Notes: generated by a model not told the origin, from the sequence alone. DNA of 64,000 bases from an uncultured Methanosarcinales archaeon (GCA_964354285.1 CAYGYR010000001.1:262424-326423), one strand, 5' to 3'. Counted from the first letter of the stretch, positions 5,305-39,588 are shown. Numbers and translations are program-made.

Positions 5305-5443
5305 ATCGCACCCTTGCTTTTCAGAACTGCAAGTATCATTATGAAAATTACCAAAATCAAGATTAGACTGATGATTAGCTCCCAGGCAATCCCTCTTTTT
5401 TGCATATATTAAAAAGTAAGAATAAGTATATATAAGATTTTCG

Positions 5444-6441: not shown

Positions 6442-6915
6442 TCATGCTGCCGGGAACAGCATGTCAACCATGTCAGGCCTGACAAGAAAGTCTTCCTGCT
6501 TGAGGTCTTCGACTATGTAATGGATGTCTTTCACTTTCACATCAAACTTGTCATCAAGACTCTCAACAAAATCCTCGAGCTCGCAGGCATTCCTGAAAAT
6601 AAAGTCAGCCATGAAATCATAGCCGTTGTTTATCTTGTACAGGGAATTCACATTGGCAGACTGCATAAGAAACTCCCGCATATGCTCTTTTGTCTCCTTC
6701 CTTGCCTTGATAAGCACAGTTGCCCGAGTATTGTAGCCAAGCTTCGGATAGTTCAGCAGGGCAGTTGCCCGCAGAATCACCTCGCCCGCGCCAGACCTAA
6801 TCCTGTCAAATATCGTGCTAACAGGCACGCCTGACTTTCTTGACAGGGTTGTCAAGGGTATCCTCGCATCCTGCCTCAAGTAAGAGGCAAGCATCAAATC
6901 TTTTTTCTTAATCAT
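6442..6915 (-). CDS. lrp: Lrp/AsnC-family transcriptional regulator.
   Basis: It has an N-terminal HTH (DARIPLTTLSRKSGVPVSTIFDRIR) and a C-terminal RAM-like domain. The length of about 157 aa fits. I chose the start at the internal Met MIKKKD. Confidence 0.7.
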   Translation of the reverse strand: MIKKKDLMLASYLRQDARIPLTTLSRKSGVPVSTIFDRIRSGAGEVILRATALLNYPKLGYNTRATVLIKARKETKEHMREFLMQSANVNSLYKINNGYDFMADFIFRNACELEDFVESLDDKFDVKVKDIHYIVEDLKQEDFLVRPDMVDMLFPAA

Positions 6916-7050
6916 GTATATATCACCTCCAAGCGATATAATGTGTATAAGCAAGAACAAATTATATATTTTTGTCTTATACCTTATATATCACCTTATA
7001 ACTATATAAGAACAAAAAATTTATATATGCAATGACATATAAGGTATAAT

Positions 7051-7944
7051 ATGAAAAGAAAAGTAATACAGCTGGCGCACAAAACATTTGTTGTGAGCCT
7101 GCCCAGCAAGTGGGTAAAAAAACTTGGAATAAAAAAAGGGGATGAGCTTGAGGTTGATGACTCTGGAAAATCACTAAGCATAGCAACGCAAAGCAAAAGC
7201 AAGAGCACAGTCAGCATCCACCTAAATGGCCCTGAAGAGCTGATGCGAAGAAGGATAAACACAGCATACAAGCGTGGCTTTGACGAGCTCGAGCTAACTT
7301 ATGACGACCCAAAGGCAATAAAGGCAATACAGAAAGAGCTTGACCTGCTTCTAGGATATGAAATAGTAAAACACGGTGAGAAGCACTGCATAATCAAGTG
7401 CATAGCAAACACTTTAGAAGAAGAATATGACGTAATACTAAGAAGAATATTCCTCATGCTCCTGGAAATGGGAGAGGAAAGCCTCAAAGCAATAAAAAAC
7501 AAGGAATTTGACAGGCTGAATGAAATTGCCCTGCTAGAGCACACAAACGACAAGCTGACAAACTTCTGCAAAAGAGTGCTTAACAAAAACTGCAGCCAGA
7601 ACTCAATAATGCAATACTGCATAGTAAGAGAGCTTGAGCGCATTGCAGACTCTTATGCAAAAATCTGTACAAATATGCAGGAAAGCAAATTAAAAGCAAG
7701 CAGGGAAACAATTCTTTTCTATGAAAAAACAAATAATCTTGTGAGAGAGTTTTACGACTTATTTTATGATTTCAAAGAAGACAGGGCAGAAATATTCTCA
7801 AGGCACAGGGAAGAAATAAAAAAGCAAGGCAGCATCCTTACAAATGCAAAACCAAAAGAAGAGGCACTGCTCATACAAACAATATCAGGAATCGCATCGC
7901 AAGTAAACGCGGCAGCAGGGCCATTCTATGCAACGAAGCTATAA
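7051..7944 (+). CDS. Regulator with an AbrB/SpoVT-like swapped-hairpin N-terminus and a PhoU-like domain.
   Basis: The N-terminal KVIQLAHKTFVVSLPSKWVKKLGIKKGDELEV is AbrB/MazE-like. The C-terminal helical region resembles PhoU-family phosphate-uptake regulators. Confidence 0.55.
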   Translation: MKRKVIQLAHKTFVVSLPSKWVKKLGIKKGDELEVDDSGKSLSIATQSKSKSTVSIHLNGPEELMRRRINTAYKRGFDELELTYDDPKAIKAIQKELDLLLGYEIVKHGEKHCIIKCIANTLEEEYDVILRRIFLMLLEMGEESLKAIKNKEFDRLNEIALLEHTNDKLTNFCKRVLNKNCSQNSIMQYCIVRELERIADSYAKICTNMQESKLKASRETILFYEKTNNLVREFYDLFYDFKEDRAEIFSRHREEIKKQGSILTNAKPKEEALLIQTISGIASQVNAAAGPFYATKL

Positions 7945-9944
7945 TCCTTGAGCTGATCCAAAGCAGCATTCAGCTCAGAATAATTTTTTACTTCTCCCAA
8001 AGAAATATCTCCCCGAGAACAGAGTGTTTCAATATCTGTTGATGCATTCTTAATTGTATCAAGTGCAGCAGGCATCTCCCTCTGCCTTCTTGTCTTTGCA
8101 AAAAGCCAGTAAGCAAGCGCCCTGAGCGGGGTGCGCTTCCTGAACTCAATCAAGAAAGCAGTATCATTTATCCTGCGGCTGCTGCCAACAGCATTGTTGA
8201 AAGTTGGAAGATAATCAGAGCAGATAACATCATCTATTGCCTTGTCACCGTCTGAATCCCTGGAAAACAAAAATCCCCTTCTGAGCAGCTTGTTAAGGTC
8301 AGACTCAGGAGAGGTCGCTCCCCTGTAAGGAGTATCATACCTGACAAGAGAGCCACCATCTTCGCAATGAAACTGGCCTGTGTGAGCATCTGAATCAAAA
8401 ACAAGGCCAAAAGAATCAAAACCTGCAATAATTGCAGGAAGAGAATCACAGATAGACTGCTTCAGCTCTGGAGGAATATCTATCACTGCGAGGCTTGACT
8501 TGATATCCTCATAAATATTCTTTGTATCACCTTTGTGAGGAACCAAGGCATGAATAAGCGCAGTGCATTTTGCAGCTTCTTTAAGCAGTTTTACATCACC
8601 TGAATCAAGATAAGCTTCAGTCAATCTTTTTCCTGCAGCAGCAAACTCTGTGAGATAATAATTTTCATAAAGAGGCTGGATGCCAGGAGCATATATTGCC
8701 TTGTGGCCAATCCTCCTCAGGGCCTTGCCAATAATGCCCAGGAGATTTTTCTCTTCCAAAAGAGGCTCATACTGCTTTCCTTCCTTTAGTATGACCAGGT
8801 CTTTTGTGAACTTGTCAAGAACAATCCTGAAAACCCTGTAGCCATCAATTGACTCAAAATAATCCTGAACATTAGGCAACTCAATAAGATTTTTAATTGC
8901 TGAATTACATTCTTTATCTGTCTTTAATTCAAGCAAGTTCTCAAGAGATTCATTGCCGAACTCTTTGCTGAGATGCTCCTGCAGCTTACTGCCTGCTGAA
9001 CGCGGCAAATCTATCTCTTTAACAATATCTGAGATCACATGCAGGGTTTCAGCATACCCAAAACACATTGAAACGCTTTTATCATATTTCAGAAGCTCTT
9101 CAAAAGCTTGCAGGCCGTGCACAAAATCAAATTTGCTGAGAGCATAAAATGAATCAATCGGGCCAAGCCTGGGAAATATTTTCAAAACTGCCTTAATAAC
9201 AGGATAATGATAATATCTCTCATACAAGTTTTTTTCTTTTAATTCAGCCAGGAGACCTTTTAATGCCTTTGAATTGCAGATGAGGGCATTTTCTTTTTCT
9301 CCATACTTCAAGTAGACTGAAGCTTTTTCACCGTATATCCTATGCGGTCTTTTCAAATACAAATTCATTTTATCCAGATTGCTTATCTCTGACACTAAAC
9401 CAAAACATTTTGCTTGCTTTTGGCTGTAATGAAAATATTTAAAATAATTAAATAACTCTGGCGGCTTAAATCTATTAAGCCCTTGCAAAAACAACGCAGG
9501 AAATGCACCGCTCACTGCGGTCAGCATAAAATAAGTGCTGCGTATTTTATCAATTGCACCAAGGTTCAACATCTCAAAGCTCTTGTCTGAAGCTGCACAA
9601 AGCAGGGCTGTGTTTGCCATGCAGAAAAGCGATGCTGCAGCAGGATTATTGATTGCGGCTTCAAGAAAACTGCCCTCTTTTTTCAGCTTGTATTTCTTAA
9701 AAAGATATAATGCGCCAAGCGCAGAGAGAGGAACGCCACACAGCATCGACAGAAAAAAAGGAAAAAATATTTGCTTGCTTTTTTTGCGATTCAAATATTG
9801 CTCAGGAGATTCTAGAGCTATTTGCTTAGAAGTTTCTGCTTTCGGCTTCAGATAACCCACATAGCCAGTGTATGCCAGAGAGCTTCCTGCAATCAAAGCT
9901 CCTGCAATACAGCCTAATACTTTCTTTTTCCATCCCCCAACCAT
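7926..9944 (-). CDS. 672-aa membrane protein with two N-terminal TM helices and a large soluble domain. A kinase-like fold is possible.
   Basis: The N-terminus is hydrophobic. The motif LVPHKGDTKNIY...AVIDIPPE at aa 469-495 loosely resembles the HxDxxxxN plus IDxxE catalytic motifs of the APH/choline-kinase-like family. Confidence 0.4.
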   Translation of the reverse strand: MVGGWKKKVLGCIAGALIAGSSLAYTGYVGYLKPKAETSKQIALESPEQYLNRKKSKQIFFPFFLSMLCGVPLSALGALYLFKKYKLKKEGSFLEAAINNPAAASLFCMANTALLCAASDKSFEMLNLGAIDKIRSTYFMLTAVSGAFPALFLQGLNRFKPPELFNYFKYFHYSQKQAKCFGLVSEISNLDKMNLYLKRPHRIYGEKASVYLKYGEKENALICNSKALKGLLAELKEKNLYERYYHYPVIKAVLKIFPRLGPIDSFYALSKFDFVHGLQAFEELLKYDKSVSMCFGYAETLHVISDIVKEIDLPRSAGSKLQEHLSKEFGNESLENLLELKTDKECNSAIKNLIELPNVQDYFESIDGYRVFRIVLDKFTKDLVILKEGKQYEPLLEEKNLLGIIGKALRRIGHKAIYAPGIQPLYENYYLTEFAAAGKRLTEAYLDSGDVKLLKEAAKCTALIHALVPHKGDTKNIYEDIKSSLAVIDIPPELKQSICDSLPAIIAGFDSFGLVFDSDAHTGQFHCEDGGSLVRYDTPYRGATSPESDLNKLLRRGFLFSRDSDGDKAIDDVICSDYLPTFNNAVGSSRRINDTAFLIEFRKRTPLRALAYWLFAKTRRQREMPAALDTIKNASTDIETLCSRGDISLGEVKNYSELNAALDQLKDYSFVA

Positions 9945-9976: not shown

Positions 9977-10468
9977 TTAGCCACAAATCTCAAGAGTCAG
10001 CTTTATCTCAAATCCAGGCCTTACAGGAACAGGATGGGTCTTTGCCTCTTTCTCGCCAGGGCAAGGGGAACCGAATTTTATCTGCTCAACATCATAAGCT
10101 CCCGCTATTGAGAAATAATAATCCTTGTTCCACCTGATAATGGTCCTGTCAAGCAGTATCTCAATCTGCGAGCTCACGTAATCACAGGAATTAATCCCGC
10201 TGCAGTCAGTCGCGCCGCTTGTCAGGGCACAGTCCTGCAACAAGTCCCGAACAGTCCTGCCATAGCAGTCTGTTGTTGTGCTGAGCATTGTGTTAAGGAA
10301 GTTAGCTGCAACAATGCTCTCCTTGACAGCAGCCTCTGGCTTGCCGGTTGGGGCTTTCAGCAAGAACTGGACTGCAAAAAGCATTCCAATAGCTATAAGA
10401 ATGATTATGACAACAAGGCCCATGATTTCCATCTGGGACTTATTCTTCTGCATAAACCTCAACCTCAA
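9977..10468 (-). CDS. Small exported protein with a pilin-like N-terminal hydrophobic segment, possibly a minor pilin or pseudopilin.
   Basis: ...KNKSQMEIMGLVVIIILIAIGMLFAV has a motif (E-x-MG then hydrophobic) paralogous to 10440..10934. It is the first of an operon-like array that all lies on the minus strand. Confidence 0.45.
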   Translation of the reverse strand: MRLRFMQKNKSQMEIMGLVVIIILIAIGMLFAVQFLLKAPTGKPEAAVKESIVAANFLNTMLSTTTDCYGRTVRDLLQDCALTSGATDCSGINSCDYVSSQIEILLDRTIIRWNKDYYFSIAGAYDVEQIKFGSPCPGEKEAKTHPVPVRPGFEIKLTLEICG

Positions 10469-10934
10469 TTATGCCAAAATCATACCTATTGCCAATCACA
10501 TCATAGAGAAGTATTGGGCTCTGCGTTGAAATCTTTGAACTGTACTTATCAGGAATGTTCCTGTAAAGCACAAGCGGATTTTCTTCTTGGGGATAGAGCT
10601 GAGTTATTATTACATTTGAAAACCCAAACAGGTTATAGTAATCAACAAGATAATCTTCCTGAGGGCTCAAGCCAAGGTGCGAGCTAAGGATTGAAAGCTT
10701 CTGCTTGTCAAAGCAATTGTCTTTCTGCACGCTTGCGAATGAGCAATCAAGCTCTGGCATGTGCAGTGCCTTCTGGACAACCTGTATTGCCCTCAGCTGG
10801 ACCTGCTTCTCAAGCTCTGTTTGCAAGGAACTTTTCTGGATCTGGAAATAAAACGATGCAGCTGCAACAAGGAGAAAGAAAAATACAACCAAGACACCCA
10901 TTGTCTCAAACATCTTTATCTGCGCCTTTCTCAT
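10440..10934 (-). CDS. Small exported protein with a pilin-like N-terminus.
   Basis: MRKAQIKMFETMGVLVVFFFLLVAAASFYF has a positively charged leader and a hydrophobic helix. It overlaps its neighbours. Confidence 0.45.
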   Translation of the reverse strand: MRKAQIKMFETMGVLVVFFFLLVAAASFYFQIQKSSLQTELEKQVQLRAIQVVQKALHMPELDCSFASVQKDNCFDKQKLSILSSHLGLSPQEDYLVDYYNLFGFSNVIITQLYPQEENPLVLYRNIPDKYSSKISTQSPILLYDVIGNRYDFGIIEVEVYAEE

Positions 10935-10935
10935 A

Positions 10936-11997
10936 TCAATAAATCTCCGGGCATGAGAGATAGATTATGTTCCTGTTCTCCCGCTCAAGAGCTTCTTTTT
11001 TTGCAACAAGCGCGTTTGCATCCTGTATTTTTTCATAAACCTGCGGAGCTTCTGAAATGATTTTTGCAGATTCTTTTATTGCCTCAAGGTCATCAAGCAG
11101 GTAGATGCATTCTGTCCTGTTCTGCTGCTGCATTGTCTCCTGCAGCTTCTGCGCCCTTTCATAAACAACCTGGGCAACGTGAGCAGTGCGCGCAAAAGCT
11201 GCCCTCATTCCGCACTCATACAGGATCTTATCAGAAGCAAACATTGCTGCGAATATAGAAGGCTCCCCGATAAATATTGAAAGGCTTTTTACAAACATGA
11301 GCTCGTTTTCTTCTTTCTCAAAAAAAGAGACTAGCTTTGCAGATGATTCTATTGATACTGCAGAAACTTTTTCTTTCCTGAAAGAATCATCAAGGCCCTC
11401 AAGAGCAGGCTCTGCATCACTTGAAACATCAAGGAAAACAAACTTTGTCTCCTGAAAGCCTTCTGAGCGCGCATCTTTTATCTTGCCAAGGCCATCAATT
11501 GAGGCAATGTTAAGGCCAGGAGGCAGCTCAGTGCTTATCTGCCTGTAAAGCTTTGCTGAATCCTGGATTGAGGAATCATAAACAAGATAATACTTTATGT
11601 TCGGATTGGTAAGATAAAGAAAATTAGTCACCCTGAAAGGCATCTTGAATTCCTGAGCCCAGGCAATCGCGTCCTGCCCTGAAATCAGGCTCGGCGCGAA
11701 TATAATTTTGTCACGGAACTCTGTTGCCTTTTTACCAATCAGGAAATTGCATTCACAAGCTTGAGAGCAGCTAAATGCAATGCTGGTCCTTGGCACTGGG
11801 AGGGGCTGGGCAGTGCCTTTGCTCTCAATAGCTCCAGAAAAGACTGCTTCCATGTCTGTTGCGAGGGTTATGGAAAGCTTATCCTCAGATAGAGTTCTCT
11901 GCTTTTGAACAAGAGAAAAAAAGAACGCAAGTATTATCGCTCCTGCTATCAAAATAAAGACCCAGTGAAACTGCATCTCAAAAGCTTTTTTATTCAT
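10936..11997 (-). CDS. N-terminally TM-anchored extracytoplasmic protein of 353 aa, function unknown.
   Basis: It has a single N-terminal TM (FHWVFILIAGAIILAFFFSLV). It overlaps the upstream gene by 4 nt. Confidence 0.45.
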   Translation of the reverse strand: MNKKAFEMQFHWVFILIAGAIILAFFFSLVQKQRTLSEDKLSITLATDMEAVFSGAIESKGTAQPLPVPRTSIAFSCSQACECNFLIGKKATEFRDKIIFAPSLISGQDAIAWAQEFKMPFRVTNFLYLTNPNIKYYLVYDSSIQDSAKLYRQISTELPPGLNIASIDGLGKIKDARSEGFQETKFVFLDVSSDAEPALEGLDDSFRKEKVSAVSIESSAKLVSFFEKEENELMFVKSLSIFIGEPSIFAAMFASDKILYECGMRAAFARTAHVAQVVYERAQKLQETMQQQNRTECIYLLDDLEAIKESAKIISEAPQVYEKIQDANALVAKKEALERENRNIIYLSCPEIY

Positions 11998-12491
11998 GTT
12001 TGCTCTTCAGCAGGCCATTCAGAAATCTTTGCTTTCTTGCCAAGGCCCTCAAGCTTCAGGACAATCTTGCCATAGCTTGCGCCAACACAGACATAACCGC
12101 CATCAACAGCTATGTCCTCAAGATAAATCGGGGCCTCCTGCTTGGGAACAAGGAAAACATTCTCGCTGCCAGCCTGCCAGGCAGAATACATCAAGGGCCT
12201 TGCCTGCTCAAGATCGCCTGGCTGATTTGCCTTGTCAGGATCCACAATACAAACCTCTGTGTACCTGTTCGGCAGCCTTAACTCTATTTTTTTCACACTG
12301 CCATAATCCCTTTTGATTACCTCAACAGCTGACTCAAAATCTGTCTTAAAGTCAATCAGGGCAACCTGCTCTGAGCGCTGGAGAAAATTTGAGATTGCAC
12401 GATAGCCATATATTAGTATAAGAAGAAATATGAGCGCGGCTAGAACAAAAATAAAAATCTGGCCAATCATCTGCGCTTTTGCTTTTCTCAT
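11994..12491 (-). CDS. Small exported protein with a pilin-like N-terminus.
   Basis: The N-terminus reads MRKAKAQMIGQIFIFVLAALIFLLILIYGY. It sits 1 nt downstream of the giant adhesin gene. Confidence 0.45.
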   Translation of the reverse strand: MRKAKAQMIGQIFIFVLAALIFLLILIYGYRAISNFLQRSEQVALIDFKTDFESAVEVIKRDYGSVKKIELRLPNRYTEVCIVDPDKANQPGDLEQARPLMYSAWQAGSENVFLVPKQEAPIYLEDIAVDGGYVCVGASYGKIVLKLEGLGKKAKISEWPAEEQT

Positions 12492-12492
12492 C

Positions 12493-15400
12493 TTATTTTC
12501 CTTTCTTTAATTTTTTAAGCCTTGATAGGGCATCTTCTGATGGATTTGCCTTTACATCCCTGAGCTTTGAGATAGCCTCTTCCTTTGGCACTCTATCGAC
12601 AAGTTTTGGCTTTTTCTTAAGCTCCCTTAGCTTTTCAAGAGAATCGCCTGGCTTCTCTATTCTTTTCTTGATTTCTTCAAGAGAAATGAACTCTTCTGGA
12701 GCCTCTTTTTTCCTGACAAGCTTTCTTAGAGGATTTATCTTCTCCATAGGCATGGGCTTTGGAGCAGCTGGCCTTGGCTTTATCTCTGGCTGGATTTCCT
12801 CTGGGGGGGCTTTCTGAAGCTTTTTCTTTATCTCTTCAATCCATTTCTCAAAATATCCTTTAGTGTAGCCATAATACGCGCCATAGCCTGCACCACCAAT
12901 CAGAGCAAGGATAAAAATTATTTTCAGGAAAGTCAAGAACATGGATGACGGATGGCTTGTTTTATCAAGAGGATTTGTGCCTGCATCAATCTCCTGCTTG
13001 TCTGACCAGCCGTCTTTATCACTATCCCTTTCTTTTGGATTTGTTCCTGCACGGTATTCTTCAATATTATTCAAGCCATCTTTGTCTGGGTCTGCATCAG
13101 GAGCGCCATCACCATCACAAAGCACGCTTCCAAAATGATTAATTCTCCAGGCATCATCAATCTCATCATCACAACTGAACAGGTCTGCCATGTTAAAGCC
13201 TTCTGCAGTCGGATCACGGCAGGTCTTGCCAGCGCATCGCAATTCAGACAGGCAGTCATCCGCCAGATTGCAATTCTGCCCGCTTGCACACCTATCTGGG
13301 CACGCGCCGCCGCAATCAATATCTGACTCAGAGCCGTCAAGCACCCCATTCTCGCAGGGGCCTGGAATTATGCACTGACCATACTTGCATTTGCTTGAAC
13401 CACAATCAGTATCAACTGCACAGGTCTTGTTAAGCTCGCATTTCGCGCAGCCCGAGCCACCGCAATCAACATCTGTCTCTTTTCCATTCCTGAAGCCATC
13501 ATCACAAGCAGCTGCTGCACAGGTTCCATTTGTGCAGAACATTGAGTCGCAATCAGTATTTTCCTTGCAGAGCTTGCCTGCTGCGCATCCTGCGCAGCTT
13601 CCTCCGCAGTCAATATCTGTCTCATTAAGGTCAGCCTCCCCATTAACACAGCCAGGGGGAGCTTTTGTTGCATCAACAGTTACCCCATCGCTGGCAACTG
13701 GCTCTCCCTCAAGGCCTGCAATATTGACTGGCTTGACCCTGAAAATATACCTTGTGCCGTCTGTGAGATTTGCCTGAACATAAATCGGGCTACCATTAAG
13801 CTCGAGGCTAGGGGTCCAGTTGACAAGAACATCGCGAGTGAAAGCAGCCTCAAGCATGTAATAATAGCTCACAACCCTTGACTCATTATCCCCTCCGAGG
13901 AATCTCAGTCTTAGCTTGTTTGAATACCAGGAGATATCTGGCTGGCCCGGAAGTGTTGAGCTGTCATCAACCAAAACCATGAACGGCGGCGTATTATCAA
14001 CAGCAACTGTGATTGCAGTTACATTGCTCACTGCACCGCCAGCACCTGTGTTGCATTTCACATAGAAAGTATGAGTCCCTGCTGGCTTTGAAACCTGCTG
14101 GACATGGCTCGTGCCAAATGAGCAGTTGCCAAAACAGTTAGTGATTGCCTGCGCGTCTTCACCGAAATAGCAGAATGATTTCTTGTTTGCCTCAATGCTC
14201 AGGAAGAAAATGCCATCACTTGAATACGGCGGAGTTATGCTTGTAATCTTGAAAGACTGCGTAAGGTCAACATAAAACTTAATCATAACGGTCGGTGAAG
14301 CCAATCCTGAAAGGCTCTTGCATGCGGCATAGAAAGTCTGATTGGTTGTCTGCGTGACATTGACATCAGTAGAGTGTGATTTTTTTGGGTCCTCATCAAA
14401 GCCAGGGAAGAATCCTTCCATTTCTGCAAAATTCTGCTTTGACTGGCTGTACTTGCAGAACCCTTCCTTGTTTGCCTGGACTTGCAGCCTCGTCATATAA
14501 ACAGATGTGTTTGGAGCAATGGGCTCAACTATGGGGTTTGGCTGGGCATATGATGAAACAATTAATGGAGGTATGGTATCAACATGAATGTCAAAGCTCT
14601 CTTTTGTTGTCCCAAACTTTTCTGTCTTGCAGTAAACATGCATCTTGTGCACAGAGCCATCACCAAAGGGAATCTTGTTAAAGCCAGCAAGCTTGTGCTC
14701 AATCCCGCCTGTTGAATCAAAGTTAGCAAAAGTATCAAACTGGTCTTCTGGCGGAGGTGTTGGAACATCATAGATATACTTGCAGCTTGCAGCAGAAGAT
14801 GTCTCAACAATCACATCAAATGTGTAGCCAGGCGCAATTCCCCAGCTCGGAGCCTTAAGCCTCATCTGCGGAGCAGCTGTGATTACAGAAAAAGATGACT
14901 TAACAAGAACCTGGTTAGATGCATAATCCGTTGCCTTGACATTAACAACCTTTAACCCTTCCCTCAAGTTAGAGACAGTGCCTGCAAAAGACCTGTTATC
15001 AGTGGTCTTGAGCCTTGCAGGAAGGTCCAGAGGGAATGCTTTCTTGGCAAGCTTGTCAACAAAAATTATTTCATCAAGGCTTGTGCTTCCTAAAAGAACT
15101 GGCTCGCTAAAATTAAGCGCGACTGCAACACTTGCTGTGGTGAATTCTGACGCATCTGGCGGAGAAATCACAACAGTAGGAGGTGTGGTGTCAACCTCAA
15201 GCACAAATGAAAGAGGATCCTCCATCTGAACAGTATTATTATCAACAGAGTTAAGCGAGAAAACATATTTTCCTTCTGACAATGGGGAGTTTGGCCTGAA
15301 GGTGTATTGATAATTTGCGCCAGATGCAGGGGATGAGGCAATCTGCACGCCAAGAGACTCTTTTGCAAGGCTGGAGGCAGTAAGCTGCGCAGGCTTGTTA

Positions 15401-17364
15401 AATGTGACTGTGATTATTGGCTGGAGCGAATTAGTGTAGTATGCATCACCAACTTTTCTTGCATTTGTCACAGCAACACTGAGCACTTTTGGGCCAGAGC
15501 ACTTGTCGCACGCAAGCAGATTAATGCTCTTGTTGATCACCTCAGGATTCTTGTACTTATCAACAGAATAATACTTGATTACGCTCGTGCCTGTCTGAAG
15601 CCTGCCAATCACCTGCTGGCCATCCTGCAAATTAAGGTCATTTATGTTAAGCTGCGTTGCATTTGTGGATATTGTAAATTGAGATGCTGCATTGCAAGCA
15701 GTTGTGCTTGAGACAATGCAGAGATATGTCTTGCACCCAAGCTGCCCCTGCACCTCTCTCGGAGATACATCCCTGCTTGGCTTGTCCTTGATAACTATGT
15801 TAATGAAATCATGCCTTCCTGGCTTAAGGCCTGTTGCATAAAGAATTGTTTCAGGCGGCAGGTAATCTCTCTCGCAGGCCTGTGGATTATCAGCGCCATA
15901 GCAGTCCTGCCAGCCAGCTCCTGTGCTTCCATCTGCATTCTTGACACAGCCTGTATCAGAAGAATACTGGCAAACCTTTACTCCGCACGGATCGCTGCTA
16001 AAAGTCCTTAGTGAATTATCAGGATTAAGTGCTATTCCTCCTGCTGGGCTGCTGCATTGCGCCTGAGTGTATAATGTGCAGTCAGCTGATTCGCAGCTCT
16101 TTCCAAACTTCTGGTTCTTGTCAAAAAAACAGGTCTTTGCAGGCGTTGAGAGAGCTGCTGCTTTTTCTTCTGTGCATGCATCAAAGACAGAGTTATAGCC
16201 TTCTTTGTTGTTTGCATTAGTTGTGAATGATGCTCCGCAGATATTACAAGAATCAAACCTGGTGTCATAACAAGTTCCTGCACCAAGCGCAGGGAAAACA
16301 TCTTTCCACGCGCACTGGCCAATGCCGCAATTGTCTCTCTCGCAAGAAGCCTTGGAGTGATAATCATAGCACTTCATCTGCGCGCTGCACTGGTAGCATT
16401 TATCAACAATAGATTTTGACCTATCAAGGAAGCAGTAATTTTTTGTGGCTGTGGCTGTGCCCTCGCAAGAGGCAAGATTTGGGAAAAGGCCTAACTGTCC
16501 GCCAAGATTGCAGGCAGATGGCTCTGCGCACCTTGCGGCTGTGCCGTCTGAAACACAAATCTTGCTTCCAGTGCATTCAGTTGCAGGAGATGGCCTTGCT
16601 ACTTTGTTTGCCTGGTTGCAGAACCATGCTTTTTCGAACAATGAATTAAAGGTGCTCCTGACAGAGTCGCTGAAGTTTGAGGTGAAAGCATCATCACTTG
16701 TCATCTTGTAACCATTTGCTTTCAAATAAAGGCTTATATCATCCTGGCTGTAAAAAAATCTTGAGATGCAGAAGATGCTTGTGCCCTGCTGCCCCCAGCA
16801 CTCAATATCACCAGGATTTGCTGTAAGAGATGCATTAAAAGAATCACCAGCAATATTATAATGCGCCATGATGCGATAAGTGTATGCCTGGTCCCAGAGC
16901 AAAGAAGGGGAGCTGTCAGTATATGTGTTAGTGGGGGCAATTCTTGCAATCTCTGTAAAATTCGCGCAAACAGCCCCTTTGCACCTGAAAATCTTCACAT
17001 AATCTGCAGGGCATGGCATATTAAAATCAAGCTTTATTGCCTTCTGGCCTTTGACAGGAGAGGCAACTGCGTTTGATGGGGCTGGCTTGTACCCAGGAGC
17101 GCCGCACTGCCCAACCGGAGCGGCTGGCGGAACAATACGCGTTGCATTGCACATCTGGTTGCAGGTTGTTGTGATATTCTGCGGCGGGCCAATAAACCTG
17201 TAGTTTTTTGCAGCACAGGAAGTATAGCTCTCAAAAGTTCCTGTGCCTGTAACAGGATCACAGCAGCAGCCCTGCTGAGCCTGAGCATAAACACTTATTG
17301 CTGCGACTATGATAAAGAACATTGCTGCCAGCAATAATGTTTTTTTATTCATTGTTCTTTGCAT
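12493..17364 (-). CDS. Giant cysteine-rich surface adhesin-like protein of 1623 aa, with a signal peptide, Ig-like repeats, three tandem Cys-rich modules, thrombospondin type-3-like Ca-binding motifs, a TM anchor and a K/E-rich cytoplasmic tail.
   Basis: The signal peptide is MNKKTLLLAAMFFIIVAAISVYAQA. Repeated D(T/N)(T/I)PP domain linkers are present. Three tandem modules of about 45 aa each read NGxETDxDCGGxCxxCxxGxxCxxxxDCxSxxCxxGxC, at aa 1239-1383. DADPDKDG and DSDKDGWSD motifs lie at aa 1420-1466. The TM at aa 1474-1500 is followed by a KE-rich tail of about 120 aa. Confidence 0.8.
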   Translation of the reverse strand: MQRTMNKKTLLLAAMFFIIVAAISVYAQAQQGCCCDPVTGTGTFESYTSCAAKNYRFIGPPQNITTTCNQMCNATRIVPPAAPVGQCGAPGYKPAPSNAVASPVKGQKAIKLDFNMPCPADYVKIFRCKGAVCANFTEIARIAPTNTYTDSSPSLLWDQAYTYRIMAHYNIAGDSFNASLTANPGDIECWGQQGTSIFCISRFFYSQDDISLYLKANGYKMTSDDAFTSNFSDSVRSTFNSLFEKAWFCNQANKVARPSPATECTGSKICVSDGTAARCAEPSACNLGGQLGLFPNLASCEGTATATKNYCFLDRSKSIVDKCYQCSAQMKCYDYHSKASCERDNCGIGQCAWKDVFPALGAGTCYDTRFDSCNICGASFTTNANNKEGYNSVFDACTEEKAAALSTPAKTCFFDKNQKFGKSCESADCTLYTQAQCSSPAGGIALNPDNSLRTFSSDPCGVKVCQYSSDTGCVKNADGSTGAGWQDCYGADNPQACERDYLPPETILYATGLKPGRHDFINIVIKDKPSRDVSPREVQGQLGCKTYLCIVSSTTACNAASQFTISTNATQLNINDLNLQDGQQVIGRLQTGTSVIKYYSVDKYKNPEVINKSINLLACDKCSGPKVLSVAVTNARKVGDAYYTNSLQPIITVTFNKPAQLTASSLAKESLGVQIASSPASGANYQYTFRPNSPLSEGKYVFSLNSVDNNTVQMEDPLSFVLEVDTTPPTVVISPPDASEFTTASVAVALNFSEPVLLGSTSLDEIIFVDKLAKKAFPLDLPARLKTTDNRSFAGTVSNLREGLKVVNVKATDYASNQVLVKSSFSVITAAPQMRLKAPSWGIAPGYTFDVIVETSSAASCKYIYDVPTPPPEDQFDTFANFDSTGGIEHKLAGFNKIPFGDGSVHKMHVYCKTEKFGTTKESFDIHVDTIPPLIVSSYAQPNPIVEPIAPNTSVYMTRLQVQANKEGFCKYSQSKQNFAEMEGFFPGFDEDPKKSHSTDVNVTQTTNQTFYAACKSLSGLASPTVMIKFYVDLTQSFKITSITPPYSSDGIFFLSIEANKKSFCYFGEDAQAITNCFGNCSFGTSHVQQVSKPAGTHTFYVKCNTGAGGAVSNVTAITVAVDNTPPFMVLVDDSSTLPGQPDISWYSNKLRLRFLGGDNESRVVSYYYMLEAAFTRDVLVNWTPSLELNGSPIYVQANLTDGTRYIFRVKPVNIAGLEGEPVASDGVTVDATKAPPGCVNGEADLNETDIDCGGSCAGCAAGKLCKENTDCDSMFCTNGTCAAAACDDGFRNGKETDVDCGGSGCAKCELNKTCAVDTDCGSSKCKYGQCIIPGPCENGVLDGSESDIDCGGACPDRCASGQNCNLADDCLSELRCAGKTCRDPTAEGFNMADLFSCDDEIDDAWRINHFGSVLCDGDGAPDADPDKDGLNNIEEYRAGTNPKERDSDKDGWSDKQEIDAGTNPLDKTSHPSSMFLTFLKIIFILALIGGAGYGAYYGYTKGYFEKWIEEIKKKLQKAPPEEIQPEIKPRPAAPKPMPMEKINPLRKLVRKKEAPEEFISLEEIKKRIEKPGDSLEKLRELKKKPKLVDRVPKEEAISKLRDVKANPSEDALSRLKKLKKGK

Positions 17365-18671
17365 GCAATTGGGATAAACCTTACAGTCTGATAATCTTTC
17401 AGCTCGCCATCGTCTGCAGTCACTTTTATTTTCAAGCCACCTGTTGCAGAGTCTGTGTTATAAGAAGCAACTGCCCATGTTGCCCAGTAATCAACATCAA
17501 TCTCGTCAGCGCTTGGATTAATTGCGTAAGTCACGTTATCATTATCTGGATCAGAGACATTGAACTTTAAAGGAAAGATTTGAGCAACAGGAATGGATTC
17601 ACGGGCTGCGGCAGAGACGACCTTTAGCGGGGCAAATGTAAGCTGACTTCCGCCAAAACGAACCACGTTTCCAATGCAGTACATGTACAGGTCTATCTTT
17701 GTCTGATTAACCCATTGCAGCGCAGGCGCCCTATTTTTTCGCGCAATCCTGAATTCATATGGCTTGCCCTTGAGCTTTGCTTTTGCATCCTGATATATGA
17801 TCACATCATCTTTTCCAAAAACATCTTTATTGATTGCAATAAAATAATCGCTTGTTGCCTGCGGCTCATAACTGATGTTTGTAATGTCGCTGTCAATGAT
17901 TTCTTTCACTGCATAATAGATTTGGCCAAACCTGATTGGATAGCTAACAACAAACTGGTTAAGTGTTGTCTGCGCCTGTGTTGCATATTCCTTGACTGTG
18001 ACAGACCAGTTGAGGACAAATGAGATGTATTCCTCAGCCTCGAGCTGCGTTGTGTTTTCTGCAATAATCATCTGGACAGATGGCTTTCCTGCATCAATGT
18101 TAAGCCCCTGCATTTCAAAAGTGCCCCAGTTAGCGCATTTAAGAACATTTGTTACAATGCTTTTTTCAAGCTGGTCTTGTATGGAGAGCGTCCCGCTAAT
18201 TTCCCTGTAAAGCGGGGGAAGCTTTGAAACACCAAAATACCCATAATCCTGCTTTCCTCCTGCAACATAAGGGAACATCTGCCAGGGGTATTCAGGAGGC
18301 TCTGAGAAAAAAATGCTTCCCACATTTCCTGTTGGGGGAACAATGTCATAAATAAGTTTCAGGCCATCATAATCAAGATGCACTTTGCCTTTAAAAACAG
18401 GCATGGGTTCTTGTATCATCCCGCCCTGGCTCTCATAAAGCACGCCCCCTTGCTTTCCAATAAGCTCCATTGACTGAGCGGCAGCAACATCAAGGCAGCT
18501 TGTTATGTAATCCTTGACTGGCTGGACAACAGTTGGTCTCAAGCTTTGCATCATGCCCTCTTCGCTTTTTTTCCCTGCTTTGGAAGAAAAGAGATAAATC
18601 ATCATGCCTATGCCTATCAAAAGTATTATTCCGATGATTATGAATATGGTTATTTGCGCTTTTCTTTTCAT
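17349..18671 (-). CDS. TM-anchored extracellular protein with a C-terminal cadherin-like Ca-binding domain.
   Basis: The N-terminus MKRKAQITIFIIIGIILLIGIGMMIYLF starts at an ATG that overlaps the upstream TGA in an ATGA pattern. A C-terminal motif reads ...NVSDPDNDNVTYAINP. Confidence 0.55.
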   Translation of the reverse strand: MKRKAQITIFIIIGIILLIGIGMMIYLFSSKAGKKSEEGMMQSLRPTVVQPVKDYITSCLDVAAAQSMELIGKQGGVLYESQGGMIQEPMPVFKGKVHLDYDGLKLIYDIVPPTGNVGSIFFSEPPEYPWQMFPYVAGGKQDYGYFGVSKLPPLYREISGTLSIQDQLEKSIVTNVLKCANWGTFEMQGLNIDAGKPSVQMIIAENTTQLEAEEYISFVLNWSVTVKEYATQAQTTLNQFVVSYPIRFGQIYYAVKEIIDSDITNISYEPQATSDYFIAINKDVFGKDDVIIYQDAKAKLKGKPYEFRIARKNRAPALQWVNQTKIDLYMYCIGNVVRFGGSQLTFAPLKVVSAAARESIPVAQIFPLKFNVSDPDNDNVTYAINPSADEIDVDYWATWAVASYNTDSATGGLKIKVTADDGELKDYQTVRFIPIACKEQ

Positions 18672-19777
18672 GGCCTTAGTTTTGATGTAAGGTCCTGCCA
18701 TGCATCAATGCCTCCCGTGCCTGGTGTTTTCTTGCCAATTAAAACAAAGTCATTTGCAGTTGGCTGGCTGTCGCAGTAAATGTCCATGTCAGATTCTGCA
18801 TACTGCTTGAATATGTTTGTGCATGAGCTGTTGCCAAAGGAATATCCCTGATATCTTACCCCGAAATAGCTGTGCCTCAGGTCAGTCTGCTCAACTTCCT
18901 CAAAGGCAAAAATCCTTTTAGTGCCTTTTTCTGCATAATAAAACCTGTTAAACAAGGGCATTATGCTGAAAAATGAGAAGTTGGCTGCAGTGCCATGAAG
19001 CCTTGCCATGACATAATTGCTTAAGACGTCAAAATTGGGCTTGATATAATTTAAGTGCAGGGATGCATAATTTATTCCAGGAAGCAAGTTGTCTATCGGA
19101 AGATAAATCACGCTTTTGATTGAGGGATTGTAAAAGAAGTCACTTGAGCCGCATCTTGTGAAATCAACTGCAGATGATGAAACACCATTGCAAATGCTTG
19201 GCGATGCATTCATTGCAAGAAGGAAGGAATTGCTCGCATCATTAACTGGAACATTCATGCTTGCACCGACAGACACTCTTCCTTGATATTCAAGAACGCA
19301 AACATTGTTGATGCACGGCCCTGACTGGTTAAAGCACCTGAACTCACTGAAAAAAGCACTGACTCTTCCTGCATTAACATTATAATCAACCTGAGGAAGC
19401 GCTTTATCAAAATTATCGCAGTAAAGGACAAAATTCCCAGGAGAGACCCTTCTCGCAAAGTTAATCATGGTCAGGGCAATCAGCTTTGTTCTTGATGCCC
19501 AAGCCCCGTTATCGCAGTAATAATCAAGAATGTATTGAGTGTTGTTTATGCACCTTGGCTTTTCACTTGCAAAATACTTGTCTGGCTGGCTGTCAGCTGA
19601 TGAATTAAAATCAGGCCCGACGCCAACAAGGCACTGTGATGCAAGAGGGCAGTAATTAAGGTAAAGCTTCTGCTTCATCTCATACTTAGGTGTTGTGGGA
19701 TACCACTGAGCCCCTGCATAGACAAAGCTGGCTGCAAGAATTGCTAACAAGATTAGCAAAACTATTTTCTTCAACAC
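18668..19777 (-). CDS. Secreted cysteine-rich protein with many N-glycosylation sequons.
   Basis: The signal peptide is MLKKIVLLILLAILAASFVYAGA. It has more than 20 Cys and many N-x-S/T sites. Confidence 0.55.
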   Translation of the reverse strand: MLKKIVLLILLAILAASFVYAGAQWYPTTPKYEMKQKLYLNYCPLASQCLVGVGPDFNSSADSQPDKYFASEKPRCINNTQYILDYYCDNGAWASRTKLIALTMINFARRVSPGNFVLYCDNFDKALPQVDYNVNAGRVSAFFSEFRCFNQSGPCINNVCVLEYQGRVSVGASMNVPVNDASNSFLLAMNASPSICNGVSSSAVDFTRCGSSDFFYNPSIKSVIYLPIDNLLPGINYASLHLNYIKPNFDVLSNYVMARLHGTAANFSFFSIMPLFNRFYYAEKGTKRIFAFEEVEQTDLRHSYFGVRYQGYSFGNSSCTNIFKQYAESDMDIYCDSQPTANDFVLIGKKTPGTGGIDAWQDLTSKLRP

Positions 19778-19799
19778 TTCACCTCTTTTTTTAATTTAA

Positions 19800-22526
19800 T
19801 TATCTGCAAATAAATGCACTATCTCCCAGACTGTAATAATCACCTGAATCAACACACCTAAAGCCATCCCAGCACTGGTCATCGCTGCAGCAGCCTGTTG
19901 TTGATAGCACAGTAATTCCATAATCCAAAGGATCCCAGATTATGCTTTTTGAAACAGTCGCGTCTGCATCATTTGTGTAAAGCCAGACACCGCCAGGGCC
20001 GCAGACAGAATGATTGCCAGGGCCTGCTGCATCAAGCTTTATGTTAGAGCATGTTGCTGGAAGATTTGAAACTAAAGCAGTGTTTGTATGAGTATCTTTA
20101 AGCGCAAGGAAAGGCGAATTTGCGGGAAGAGCACATCCGAAAAAAGCTCCTTGATAGTTCAATATTTTAGGGGTCAAGAGGTGCCCTCTTTCAACAAAGG
20201 TTTTGTTCCAGCACCCGCCAAGAGCAAGGATTGGCTGCGCGGTTATTATTTTCCAGCGATACCTGCAAGGGTCTCCTGACTCGCCAATGTTAAGTATCTT
20301 TATGGTCTTGCTTTCCCATGGAGCAATATCAACAATGTCTGTGCTTAATTTAGGGCAGGCGCCTATGTCTGATGCTGATTCTGCAGAATATGTCTCGACA
20401 GCAAGCCTTGCAAGCCCGCTTATTGTAACATAATGGCCAAGATTGCTCAAAGTGATTTGCGCTGATTCAACCTGAGCACCTGCATGCCACGCAGTTGTCT
20501 TGCCTTGAGGATATTTTGCAAGGTCTGCCCTTGGAGAATCATGCTCATTGTAATATTCTGTGGGGATGTCATCCATCTCTGAGCAGCACATTGTGCCAGT
20601 CCAGTGAAATCCTGCCTTGTTGCATGAGCTCAGGTCTTTAATATCAAGGTCTGCTGTCCAGTCACCGTCTGCTGCGCAGTATTGATTTGCAACAGTTGTG
20701 CTTGGCTGAGCCTGGCAGTAGCTTGATGGATTTTTTGCATGCAGAGTAACAAGAGAGTGCCGTAAAACCTTGCCGTAAATTGCAACCTCATCAATATCAC
20801 CAATGAAGTTTCCGCCAATAATTATTGGCTGGCTAGACCAGGAGATATTTCCTGTAGTAACATCTTCAATAGGAACCCCGTCAAGATAAAGTTTTGCAAC
20901 ACTGCCGTCATAAGTCAAAGCCACATGATGCCAGAGATTTGGAACAACGTTTCTCGAGCCAAAATCAAGCATGCCTGCTCCTGTGTTTACTGCGCCCACA
21001 AGCAGCCCTGCGTCCATTGCAATCTTGAAAGTGCTTCCTTTCTCAATTATTTTTCTCACACCAGATGTCTCTGTCGGCCTGATCCACGCCTCAACTGAGA
21101 ACTCATTTCCGGCAGCCAAACTACCAGATGCCTCAACCCTGTCAGTGCCATCAAAAGAAAGAGCGCCACTTACTTTGCCTGTTGATGCTGTTGCGCCAAA
21201 GTTGTTTCCATTAAAAATTCCTTTTGTGTCTTTTGCAGTGCCATCATCAAAAGTCCAGTAAGAAAGAATATTTGGAGGGCACCCACCTGAGCCAAGAAGC
21301 TCAAATGTTGTTACGCCTGTTTCTGCAACAATATCCTGGTCATATGTATATGATGCAATGTCACCTGCGCATTCAAAAATCTCCCCGCTTGAACAGATGT
21401 ATTCGTGAGTGCCGAGGGTTCCTGAAATATTTGCGCTAGTGAATATATTATAATAACCTGTTGAGTCGGGCCATGGCGATGAGAAATCAAGCTTTCTCTG
21501 AATCCCTCCTGCCATAACTAATGTGTCTGAAACTCCCTGCACAGACTGCCCTTTGCAGCCATAGAAACCTCCGCGCCTATCAGAAACCAAACTTACACCT
21601 GGGCATGCAAGAAGCTCATGAATATTACCATAATCATCATTAAGAGGCACCCACTGCCATCTACCATCAAGGGTTTTTCCGCAGAATGCATTTAAATTAT
21701 CATGATATGTGCAGTTAACTGCTTCAAGATTCGTTGCTGCATAAATTGCACTAGGGTCTTCTCCGCAACATACGCCCTTATACCAGTCTGCGCCTGCATT
21801 AAAGCATGGTTCTGCCTGCTTGTAATCACACTCGCCATTTGCATCAACATCAACACACACATTCAAATAGTCATCTGCTGCAGGATCAAGCAGTTCTTTC
21901 TGAGCATTATACTCCTCTCCTTCCTTGCCAATCCAGCCCATAACCTTCTGAGTGCTCAACCCAAAATAGACAGTCTCTCCTGCAGGAGGAAGCTTGTCAC
22001 CCATTAAGTCATAGATTGAGCCAATTGATTTAACACGGTCTTCCTTGAAAACAGAACCGAGGCCAGAGATATCTATGTCAACATAATTCACCCAGATATT
22101 ACCATGAAAATAACAATCATATTCACCAGACCAATCACAGCTCCCTCCAAAAATGGCCTTGTCAGTAATACCAATAATAGGATCAGGGCCTTTAGCAGGG
22201 TCAGACCATCCTCGAGCATAATTGCCTGTTTTATAGTAAGCAGTTTGGGCATCCTTATAAAAAAGCTGCACTTGAGTCCTAACATGACATCGATTTTGGG
22301 ATGCACCCCCATTAGATGCAGTTGAGACTCCAATCACAGGCGCAGGAAGGTTCCTAATATTCTCGCACTCAACCTTAAAACAAGAATCTCTCTCTGTGAA
22401 TATAGACTTTCCGCAAGAATCCTCTGTTGCACTATTGCCAAGGGCCCACTCAAAATCAACAGCAATAGCACTGCTTGATAACAGAATTAACCCTAAAACT
22501 ATCAAAAGTGCCTTTTTGCTTCCCAT
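19800..22526 (-). CDS. Secreted 908-aa cysteine-rich protein with a LamG/ConA-like lectin domain.
   Basis: The signal peptide is MGSKKALLIVLGLILLSSSAIAVD. The region aa ~420-590 (SGALSFDGTDRVEA...NLWHHVALTYDGSVAKLYLDGV...GDIDEVAIYGKVL) matches the LamG jelly-roll signature. Confidence 0.7.
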   Translation of the reverse strand: MGSKKALLIVLGLILLSSSAIAVDFEWALGNSATEDSCGKSIFTERDSCFKVECENIRNLPAPVIGVSTASNGGASQNRCHVRTQVQLFYKDAQTAYYKTGNYARGWSDPAKGPDPIIGITDKAIFGGSCDWSGEYDCYFHGNIWVNYVDIDISGLGSVFKEDRVKSIGSIYDLMGDKLPPAGETVYFGLSTQKVMGWIGKEGEEYNAQKELLDPAADDYLNVCVDVDANGECDYKQAEPCFNAGADWYKGVCCGEDPSAIYAATNLEAVNCTYHDNLNAFCGKTLDGRWQWVPLNDDYGNIHELLACPGVSLVSDRRGGFYGCKGQSVQGVSDTLVMAGGIQRKLDFSSPWPDSTGYYNIFTSANISGTLGTHEYICSSGEIFECAGDIASYTYDQDIVAETGVTTFELLGSGGCPPNILSYWTFDDGTAKDTKGIFNGNNFGATASTGKVSGALSFDGTDRVEASGSLAAGNEFSVEAWIRPTETSGVRKIIEKGSTFKIAMDAGLLVGAVNTGAGMLDFGSRNVVPNLWHHVALTYDGSVAKLYLDGVPIEDVTTGNISWSSQPIIIGGNFIGDIDEVAIYGKVLRHSLVTLHAKNPSSYCQAQPSTTVANQYCAADGDWTADLDIKDLSSCNKAGFHWTGTMCCSEMDDIPTEYYNEHDSPRADLAKYPQGKTTAWHAGAQVESAQITLSNLGHYVTISGLARLAVETYSAESASDIGACPKLSTDIVDIAPWESKTIKILNIGESGDPCRYRWKIITAQPILALGGCWNKTFVERGHLLTPKILNYQGAFFGCALPANSPFLALKDTHTNTALVSNLPATCSNIKLDAAGPGNHSVCGPGGVWLYTNDADATVSKSIIWDPLDYGITVLSTTGCCSDDQCWDGFRCVDSGDYYSLGDSAFICR

Positions 22527-22629
22527 ATAAACCCTCTTTTTAGAAGATAATCCTATATTTCATATTTAAACCTTTTGCATATATCATAGGCGGACACGAC
22601 TGCATTTAATTTTACTTCGGCGGATGAAG

Positions 22630-22677: not shown

Positions 22678-23232
22678 ATGACAGATATTGGTTCTTCAAA
22701 GGAAGATTACAAAAAATACTTTTTCATGAGCGCAGTAAGCCTTATTGTGGTTATTGCAATTATTGCGGCGGTCTATTTTATTGCACTACAGCCAGAATAT
22801 ACACAATATTATAACGAGTATCTAAAGGAATGCACAGAACAAAACAAAGAGTTGTATCTTCTTCTGATGGCACAGAGAACAGGTGATGAAAAATACTGTG
22901 AAGAAAAACAAGTCCTCAAAAACAAATGCCTGGCTTACGCAAGAAAGAATCCTGATTTATACTGTAATGAACTGGCTGGAACAACTAAAGAAAGCTGCCG
23001 TGCCGAAGTGCTGCAGGATGCATCAATATGCCCAAAAGATGATATCTGGTGCTTAGCGTATGCTTCAGGAGACCCGCGAGTCTGCGATAGATTAGACAAA
23101 CAAGATACTGAGGAATGCAAAAAAGCATTTCCAAATAATGCAGAATATTGGGTTTCTAATGCTGCAGATGCGGAGTGCAAACAAATGGCAACAGCTGCTG
23201 CAGAAAGTATGGCCAAATTAAGGCCATACTAA
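22678..23232 (+). CDS. Membrane-anchored Cys-rich small protein, function unknown.
   Basis: It has a TM helix (FFMSAVSLIVVIAIIAAVYFIAL) followed by a domain with paired cysteines. Confidence 0.4.
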   Translation: MTDIGSSKEDYKKYFFMSAVSLIVVIAIIAAVYFIALQPEYTQYYNEYLKECTEQNKELYLLLMAQRTGDEKYCEEKQVLKNKCLAYARKNPDLYCNELAGTTKESCRAEVLQDASICPKDDIWCLAYASGDPRVCDRLDKQDTEECKKAFPNNAEYWVSNAADAECKQMATAAAESMAKLRPY

Positions 23233-36122: not shown

Positions 36123-36130
36123 TTCTTAAA

Positions 36131-37651: not shown

Positions 37652-37652
37652 C

Positions 37653-38582: not shown

Positions 38583-38620
38583 TAAATAACAAAAAAATAT
38601 TTAAAAACGAGAACCAAAGC

Positions 38621-39571: not shown

Positions 39572-39588
39572 ACTGAGGTGAATATAAA

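Follow-up and report, generated by a model that had tools for sequence, protein, structure and literature searches.

Eight consecutive minus-strand open reading frames (ORFs) fill positions 9977-22526 of a 64,000-nucleotide stretch of DNA deposited as an uncultured Methanosarcinales archaeon (GCA_964354285.1 CAYGYR010000001.1:262424-326423; the whole stretch is called the window below). On balance this operon probably represents the pilin and surface-protein set of an Epd/Tad-like type IV filament that is conserved across the Woesearchaeota. The filament reading is favoured because five mutually non-homologous protein families have one N-terminal design, because their synteny is strong and extends to S116, a small pilin-like protein encoded downstream, and because such loci have a precedent in Archaea. 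An earlier note on this DNA had described a structural locus for a surface appendage, a proposal that is supported by the class III N-terminus conserved in five non-homologous families together with the linkage to S116.

The window is archaeal, as that note had it, and carries genes for RNase P p30, eRF1, RFC, PheRS, PolD and Cdc6. The source names of the homologues point to Woesearchaeota. The GC content is uniform along the window, with the operon similar to the remainder.

Organization of the operon

The eight genes are tightly spaced, with overlaps or gaps of no more than 34 nt at the junctions, and lie exactly where the earlier note had placed them. They are listed here from the downstream end, with a promoter-like element as the last entry.

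9977-10468, minus strand: P1, 163 aa from a TTG start, minor-pilin-like
10440-10934, minus strand: P2, 164 aa, minor-pilin-like
10936-11997, minus strand: P3, 353 aa, large pilin-like protein
11994-12491, minus strand: P4, 165 aa, minor-pilin-like
12493-17364, minus strand: P5, 1623 aa, Cys-rich type I membrane protein
17349-18701, minus strand: P6, 450 aa, modular pilin-like protein
18668-19777, minus strand: P7, 369 aa, secreted, with a Sec-type signal peptide
19800-22526, minus strand: P8, 908 aa, Cys-rich secreted protein, first gene of the operon
22563-22570, minus strand: TTTAAATA, element resembling an archaeal TATA box some 40 nt ahead of the ATG of P8, recognized from the sequence

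A hydrophobic N-terminal segment is found in all eight products by Kyte-Doolittle analysis, in agreement with the earlier statement that each carries a signal peptide or an N-terminal transmembrane (TM) helix, and all eight are predicted to be either exported or anchored in the membrane. The N-termini of orthologues indicate that the true start of P1 is probably the ATG at 10453 and that of P6 probably Met11, at about nt 18671; with these revised starts two of the overlaps become shorter. A purine-rich AGAGGG lies directly ahead of the P8 start codon. The element TTTAAATA is a plausible candidate for the operon promoter and is consistent with a single transcription unit.

Prepilin-like N-termini

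Five operon products, P1, P2, P3, P4 and P6, have prepilin-like N-termini. P1, P2, P4 and P6, as well as S116, start with M-x-[KR]-[KR]-[G/A/S]-Q, behind which come about 22 hydrophobic residues. The motif is kept in 30-72 orthologues per family and its Gln, which would occupy position +1 of the mature protein, is invariant or nearly so (Q7 in P1, Q5 in P2, Q7 in P4, Q16 in P6 and Q7 in S116). The corresponding motif of P3 is KK[G/A]-[F/I/L]-E-[M/L]-Q-F-[H/N]-W-I-F-I-L-I-A-G-A, with Phe, Ile or Leu rather than Gln at +1. The end of the leader is thus conserved as [KR][KR][G/A/S] in P1, P2, P4, P6 and S116 and as KK[G/A] in P3. These N-termini show what is expected of an archaeal class III signal peptide, namely a basic leader with a small residue, Gln at +1 (P3 excepted) and a hydrophobic stretch of about 20 residues. 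The strict Gln-type motif occurs in 6 of the 55 gene-like ORFs of the window, and five of the six lie between 5.7 and 18.7 kb.

Profile-profile comparison with hhalign confines the similarity among the five pilin-like families to the N-terminal helix. Similarity limited to the N-terminal segment is usual for pilins. The earlier note had counted three small pilin-like proteins in 9977-12491; their pilin-like nature is borne out, and the number needs correcting to four, or five with P6.

P1 begins with MQKNKSQ followed by MEIMGLVVIIIL and contains six Cys. Its motif is kept in 69 sequences, and Q7, E9, G12, L13 and three Cys are invariant in the family alignment. P2 (MRKAQ followed by IKMFETMGVLVVFFF) keeps the motif in 72 sequences with Q5 and E10 invariant, and P4 (MRKAKAQ followed by MIGQIFIFVLAAL) keeps it in 53 with Q7, C81 and C135 invariant; P4 matches nothing in Pfam, NCBIfam or the PDB. 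P3 starts with MNKKA followed by FEMQFHWVFILIAGA; four of its Cys are invariant, and an SCPxIY motif lies at the C-terminus. Its AlphaFold2 (AF2) model, built with 24 sequences, has a predicted local distance difference test score (pLDDT) of 89.6 and a predicted template-modelling score (pTM) of 0.84. Behind a 56-residue N-terminal helix (residues 3-58) come a beta domain and an alpha/beta domain of Rossmann/CheY-like type, and the C-terminal part is a helical bundle.

P6, read from Met11, begins with MKRKAQ followed by ITIFIIIGIILL. An N-terminal helix is followed by an alpha/beta domain, and the C-terminal part is a beta domain in which the DPD and DG..DYQ motifs are conserved. In the AF2 model (pLDDT 79) the helix spans residues 13-40, the alpha/beta core is well predicted and the C-terminal beta domain is weaker. 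Ten of the top 60 weak structural matches of this model are type IV pilins or pseudopilins (EpsI, XcpV, PilX, FimT, PilA5, TTHA1218/1222, S. sanguinis PilB and two Shewanella pilins), an enrichment that is suggestive only. The family has no match in PDB profile searches, and a single member of the 34 examined touches the Pfam family He_PIG, weakly (E 0.016). The DPD...DG..DYQ motif on which a cadherin-like label for P6 had been based is genuine and conserved in the family; the cadherin identity itself is unproven. The same description had made P6 one of four large Cys-rich proteins. This is right for P5, P8 and P7, with 77, 34 and 12 Cys respectively, and wrong for P6, which has only 4 (0.9%) and is pilin-like instead.

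The large surface proteins

P5 has a Sec signal peptide, the mature N-terminus QGCCCDP, an Ig-like region, Cys repeats, TSP3 repeats, a TM helix and a cytoplasmic tail, in this order. It contains about 77 Cys in total (about 76-83 in orthologues) and 22 N-X-S/T sequons. The Ig-like region matches the Pfam family Big_3_3 at aa 684-735 with 27.1 bits against a cut-off of 27, so that the Ig-like repeats previously assigned to the large proteins are found in P5 as a borderline match. Three CGG-type Cys repeats occupy aa ~1241-1400. The calcium-binding TSP3-like motifs proposed earlier are recovered by Pfam TSP3_bac (PF18884) at aa 1447-1467 (nt 12964-13026; 27.6 bits against a cut-off of 25). This family is also matched in nine sampled orthologues with a best E of 2.2e-13, and the motif DxDxDGxxDxxE is present in 32 of 49 full-length orthologues. 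In P5 orthologues the TSP3 repeats directly precede the C-terminal TM helix, which is found in 39 of the 49 and lies at aa ~1475-1497 (nt 12874-12942) in the window protein. The tail that follows is Lys/Glu-rich and 126-130 aa long, and orthologues conserve a charged (Lys/Arg-rich) tail of 118-228 aa. In many P5 orthologues the sequence G-C-C-C-[DEN], usually GCCCDP, stands right behind the signal peptide (aa 29-36 of the product), and three successive Cys at a mature N-terminus are unusual.

Because of its C-terminal TM helix and cytoplasmic tail, P5 is taken to be an anchored type I membrane protein, features that its earlier label of giant adhesin overlooks. The anchor is compatible with an archaeal S-layer protein, and P5 fits the description of an S-layer-like protein with a C-terminal TM segment and conserved cysteines (PMC4858521) better than that of a free tip adhesin. 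Single-sequence searches find no PDB relative of P5. Among 31 sampled large proteins (the window's P5 and 30 orthologues of P5, P8 and P7), and in P5, P7 and P8 themselves, Pfam gives no match to a PilY1-type C-terminal beta-propeller, an N-terminal vWA domain or the archaeal DUF2341.

P7 and P8 both carry a Sec-type signal peptide. P7, with its 12 Cys, has no known domain in Pfam or NCBIfam. In P8, with 34 Cys, a LamG domain reported before is confirmed by a Pfam match to Laminin_G_3 at aa 459-590 (nt 20757-21152; E 3.4e-19, 69.9 bits against a 27.6-bit cut-off). Only members of the closest clade have an alignable LamG segment; in other lineages the Cys-rich parts on either side are retained and the segment itself is missing. 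Laminin_G_3 is found in 3 of the 31 sampled large proteins. The domain is thus a lineage-specific insertion and not a defining part of the system. In one related locus (L003) P8-like and P7-like parts are fused in a single ORF, pointing to a functional link between the two proteins. The six operon proteins other than P5 and P8 match no family in Pfam or NCBIfam.

Conservation and distribution

Gene order was compared across 82 related loci, or 84 when two re-assemblies of the window organism are included. The order P3-P2-P1 is colinear in 72 of 72 loci, with P4 directly upstream of P3 in 50 of 79 and P5 upstream on the same strand in 42 of 52. P6, P7 and P8 are located upstream of this core in 29, 26 and 21 of 46 loci, respectively, and where all eight genes are present (21 loci) they are invariably colinear. 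In 29 of 44 loci S116 is encoded downstream on the same strand, at 62-751 nt from P1 in 12 of them. Distant homologues of S116 likewise adjoin P3-P2-P1-type genes, and behind the trio distant lineages carry runs of further small ORFs with Gln at +1, about nine at most. This gene order recurs in dozens of species-level genomes and is beyond chance. The homologues are clearly not scattered among unrelated genomic contexts, a pattern that the earlier note had named as one that would speak against a single system.

Full-length homologues exist for every operon ORF. The P3 family comprises 130 clusters in a set of 5.8 billion proteins and is present in 185 GTDB species genomes, whose records are named Woesearchaeota, Nanoarchaeia or Nanoarchaeota, in addition to several with the same synteny that are titled 'uncultured Methanosarcinales'. 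The latter are GTDB records (third-party annotation (TPA) assemblies) and include loci L007, L011, L014, L017, L019, L023 and others. These titles look like placeholders or errors; the loci show the synteny of Woesearchaeota, with RNase P p30 as a neighbour. RNase P p30 and a gene for a MazE-PhoU fusion flank the operon in many lineages, distant ones among them.

Median identity to the window proteins is 32-48% for the operon products and 36-46% for flanking housekeeping genes. Because the operon diverges at about the housekeeping rate, it is regarded as a vertically inherited core feature and not as a hypervariable adhesin island. Host attachment, raised in the earlier note, is conjectural; such divergence suggests a core structural role rather than that of a fast-evolving, host-specific adhesin.

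The downstream module

The region between the operon and the start of the window contains a possible ninth gene and further pilin-like proteins.

7926-9944, minus strand: F672, 672-aa membrane-associated protein 32 nt downstream of P1, possible ninth gene
5766-6116, minus strand: S116, 116-aa small pilin-like protein starting (MI)MDKGQ followed by GLPITTIVIAALALVVLVILF
4321-5541, minus strand: S406, pilin-like protein following S116, in which an internal Met gives MNKKG followed by YEITSVAVAAIAAVIALVV
1-4179, minus strand: second giant ORF, more than 1393 aa, cut off by the start of the window, with the pilin-like N-terminus MNKKA followed by VAWGVIIGGIAAIVII

S116 consists of the N-terminal helix and a Cys-rich head of about 60 aa that ends in CC, and is a candidate for the major filament subunit. 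It gives a full-length PDB match to the Thermus narrow-pilus pilin PilA5 which is weak and not significant (E 0.3-0.5). Its relatives form 381 clusters in a scan of 1.84 billion representatives, and Pfam detects no pilin family in the 149 of these that were searched. S406 homologues stand behind S116 in 18 loci. Neither S406 nor the second giant ORF has a match in Pfam or NCBIfam. F672 is poorly conserved, with tblastn matches in just seven loci, and contains no domain known to Pfam or NCBIfam.

The minus-strand segment 1-6960 can be described as a second pilin-rich module in which a gene with an AsnC-type helix-turn-helix (6442-6960), S116, S406 and the second giant ORF follow one another in this order; the order AsnC-S116-S406 recurs in related loci. 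The MazE-PhoU gene (7051-7944, plus strand) encodes a 297-aa protein with a MazE/AbrB-like N-terminal domain fused to PhoU. The gene is convergent with F672, overlapping it by 19 nt; it is conserved beside the operon in 32 related loci and may encode a regulator.

Comparison with known systems

The operon resembles the Epd system of Methanococcus maripaludis (archaeal type IV filament system 1/clade 1) in its short basic leaders with a small residue followed by Gln at +1; substrates of EppA have leaders of 5-13 aa that end in Gly, with Gln at +1 (PMC3875500). It also resembles Epd in combining minor pilins of about 130-160 aa (130-156 aa in M. maripaludis; PMC3875500) and larger pilin-like proteins in one long operon with other surface proteins, essential in Epd. 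In Epd the major pilin is tiny and its gene is remote from the pilin operon; the genes for the ATPase and the platform form a locus of their own, likewise separate from that operon (PMC3875500; bioRxiv 10.64898/2026.04.22.720090). System 1 (Epd-like) machineries have been reported in DPANN archaea (bioRxiv 10.64898/2026.04.22.720090). Unlike Epd, the Woesearchaeota operon has no Glu at +5, no match to the DUF361/Class_IIIsignal Pfam models and no EppA gene, and it adds the 1623-aa Cys-rich anchored P5 and the Cys-rich P7 and P8. The likeness is one of N-termini and locus layout.

A similar correspondence exists with the general plan of archaeal type IV pilus (T4P) loci drawn up by Makarova, Koonin and Albers in 2016, which comprises at least five class III (minor) pilins, large adhesins with signal peptides and a Cys-rich S-layer-like protein anchored by a single C-terminal TM segment, in a setting where components are rich in conserved cysteines (PMC4858521). 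In contrast to the loci of that plan, which are defined around an ATPase-TadC pair, no such pair is present in cis here, and the Woesearchaeota families match none of the Pfam/NCBIfam models used. In the same census pilus ATPases were found in nanoarchaeal genomes whose cognate pilins were not identified (PMC4858521).

Bacterial minor-pilin priming or tip complexes (FimU-PilVWX-PilY1, GspH-I-J-K and ComGD-GG) provide a further parallel, with four adjacent minor-pilin-like genes, one pilin much larger than the others (P3 with 353 aa, compare GspK), an adjoining very large surface protein and a separate major pilin. P6 has no significant sequence or structural similarity to the modular pilin PilB of Streptococcus sanguinis, and its module is not vWA. 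The earlier view that the architecture is not that of a described system is therefore overstated, since comparable archaeal T4P loci (PMC4858521) and the Epd operon (PMC3875500) have been described. The architecture is not new in kind; it is the protein families that are unannotated. Neither a description of this particular cluster nor one of its conservation across an entire uncultivated order was found in the literature searched on Woesearchaeota and DPANN archaea.

Evidence against a filament and alternative explanations

Several results weigh against the filament interpretation. Among window ORFs of at least 110 aa, Pfam detects no T2SSE, T2SSF or Peptidase_A24, in line with the earlier statement that the window lacks an assembly ATPase, a PilC-like platform and a prepilin peptidase. 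No ORF with a T2SSE-type Walker A motif (G.[TS]GSGK[TS]) lies within 10 kb at any of the 84 loci, and Pfam finds no T2SSE or T2SSF around three distant S116 homologues. The Glu at +5 that belongs to the DUF361 motif QxSxExxxL is absent, a Glu being found at +3 in P1, at +6 in P2 and nowhere else, and PF04021 has no Pfam match among the window proteins. None of the proteins matches a pilin family in Pfam or NCBIfam at E up to 0.1, and the sole trace of a curated pilin model is that of TIGR02523 PilV in P1, far under the cut-off (E 0.023). A structure search with the P3 model finds no solved pilin of similar fold, and P1, P2, P4, P6 and S116 are without a pilin match in PDB sequence-profile searches; indeed, profile searches with P1, P2, P3, P4, P6 and S116 and single-sequence searches with P5 and P8 gave nothing significant in the PDB. 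Finally, the membrane anchor and long cytoplasmic tail of P5 are ill-suited to a tip adhesin of the PilY1 kind. A location of the machinery away from the operon would be plausible because M. maripaludis has its pilin operon, its ATPase/platform locus and its major pilin gene in separate places.

It is possible, though unlikely, that the operon specifies an envelope (S-layer-like) complex and not a pilus. P5, possibly with P7 and P8, would then form or organize the surface layer of the cell. The pilin-like proteins would be processed, yet yield just a short stalk or pseudopilus embedded in the membrane, as in the bindosome, and would anchor or organize this layer. The conserved length of P5 (about 1600 aa), its Sec signal, the Ig-like and TSP3 modules ahead of the C-terminal TM helix and the numerous sequons would suit such a role, and the operon lies among housekeeping genes and diverges at their rate as would a core envelope component. 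Class III signal peptides also serve surface proteins that do not form filaments, for example the sugar-binding proteins of the bindosome, and archaeal T4P loci are known to include S-layer-like proteins that have conserved Cys and a C-terminal TM segment (PMC4858521). However, Pfam finds no S-layer family in 15 sampled P5 proteins (that of the window and 14 orthologues), and the most conserved core of the locus consists of P3-P2-P1 and the small pilins, which persist where no P5 homologue is detected. A cytoplasmic tail of 118-228 aa and some 77 Cys are unusual for S-layer proteins.

The absence of a matching pilin model or solved pilin fold, and of assembly genes from the window (ORFs of at least 110 aa) and of a T2SSE-type ATPase from the 10 kb around related loci, would also be explained if the N-termini were ordinary uncleaved signal anchors. 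The products would in that case make up a membrane-tethered surface complex that is unconnected with any type IV filament machinery and serves, for instance, in cell-cell contact. This is distinctly improbable, as a plain anchor needs neither an invariant Gln nor a [KR][KR][G/A/S] conserved across five unrelated families, and the recurrent linkage to a protein of about 100 aa made of a helix and a small Cys-rich head is typical of pilin loci. A reading as a mobile or defence island, or as a gene-calling artefact, deserves practically no credence. PADLOC returned nothing for nine proteins, the uniform GC content of the window argues against a foreign island, the position beside RNase P p30 and MazE-PhoU is conserved in distant lineages, and every ORF has full-length homologues.

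A proposed model for a probable Woesearchaeota filament

For the favoured type IV filament we infer a course of co-transcription, peptidase cleavage, filament assembly and subunit placement along the following lines. A single transcript would start from the TATA-like element upstream of P8 and extend through P1. P8, P7 and P5 would be exported through Sec and fold as disulfide-rich ectodomains, with P5 held in the membrane by its C-terminal helix and the charged tail in the cytoplasm. P6, P4, P3, P2 and P1 would be inserted into the membrane through the N-terminal helix. A class III signal peptidase whose gene lies elsewhere would cut after [KR][KR][G/A/S], leaving Gln at +1, or Phe, Ile or Leu in P3. 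A distant ATPase and platform would then use P4-P3-P2-P1 as a minor-pilin priming or tip complex for a filament whose shaft would be S116. P6 may be a modular pilin with an Ig-like end that supplies binding surfaces together with P8 and P7, while P5 may be an S-layer-like envelope component through or beside which the filament emerges.

A bolder and rather improbable extension is that the operon, together with the module of S116, S406 and the second giant, is the missing pilin set of the Nanoarchaeia-Woesearchaeota lineage and builds a lineage-wide organelle for host contact. This would be a short filament with a four-protein minor-pilin primer of a fold not known from pilins, coupled to P5 as a giant, disulfide-rich receptor whose long charged tail in the cytoplasm would signal contact into the symbiont cell.

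Other features of the window

On the plus strand, divergent from the P8 promoter region, 22678-23232 encodes a protein of 184 aa that contains 10 Cys and a single TM helix, at its N-terminus; tblastn (E up to 1e-4) gives no match to it in any of the 84 loci. Five consecutive plus-strand genes at 34956-40530 are without a Pfam or NCBIfam match. The product of the first (388 aa) has a class III-like N-terminus, MITNKRGQ followed by EAPGGGSAATLVGIITLLFVFYILF, that of the second (506 aa) combines several TM helices at the N-terminus with a large extracytoplasmic domain, and the last three encode paralogues, each about 310 aa long, whose signal peptides are lipobox-like (ITGC, LSAC and VLGC). These genes may constitute another uncharacterised surface system. 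A gene for a Cas4/PD-(D/E)XK nuclease is found at 41920-42762 on the minus strand; no other cas gene is present among the ORFs scanned, and CRISPR repeats were not searched for. The 64-kb window contains no tRNA genes and no Rfam families at the gathering threshold.

Significance

The operon adds at least nine protein families that have no relative in Pfam, NCBIfam or the PDB, two of them with confident predicted structures for which there is no solved relative. It supplies candidate pilins for a lineage in which the 2016 census had found pilus ATPases without cognate pilins. Woesearchaeota are abundant, uncultivated archaea with small genomes that are thought to live attached to other cells. 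The operon is a concrete, wholly unannotated and vertically conserved candidate for the surface attachment molecules of these archaea.

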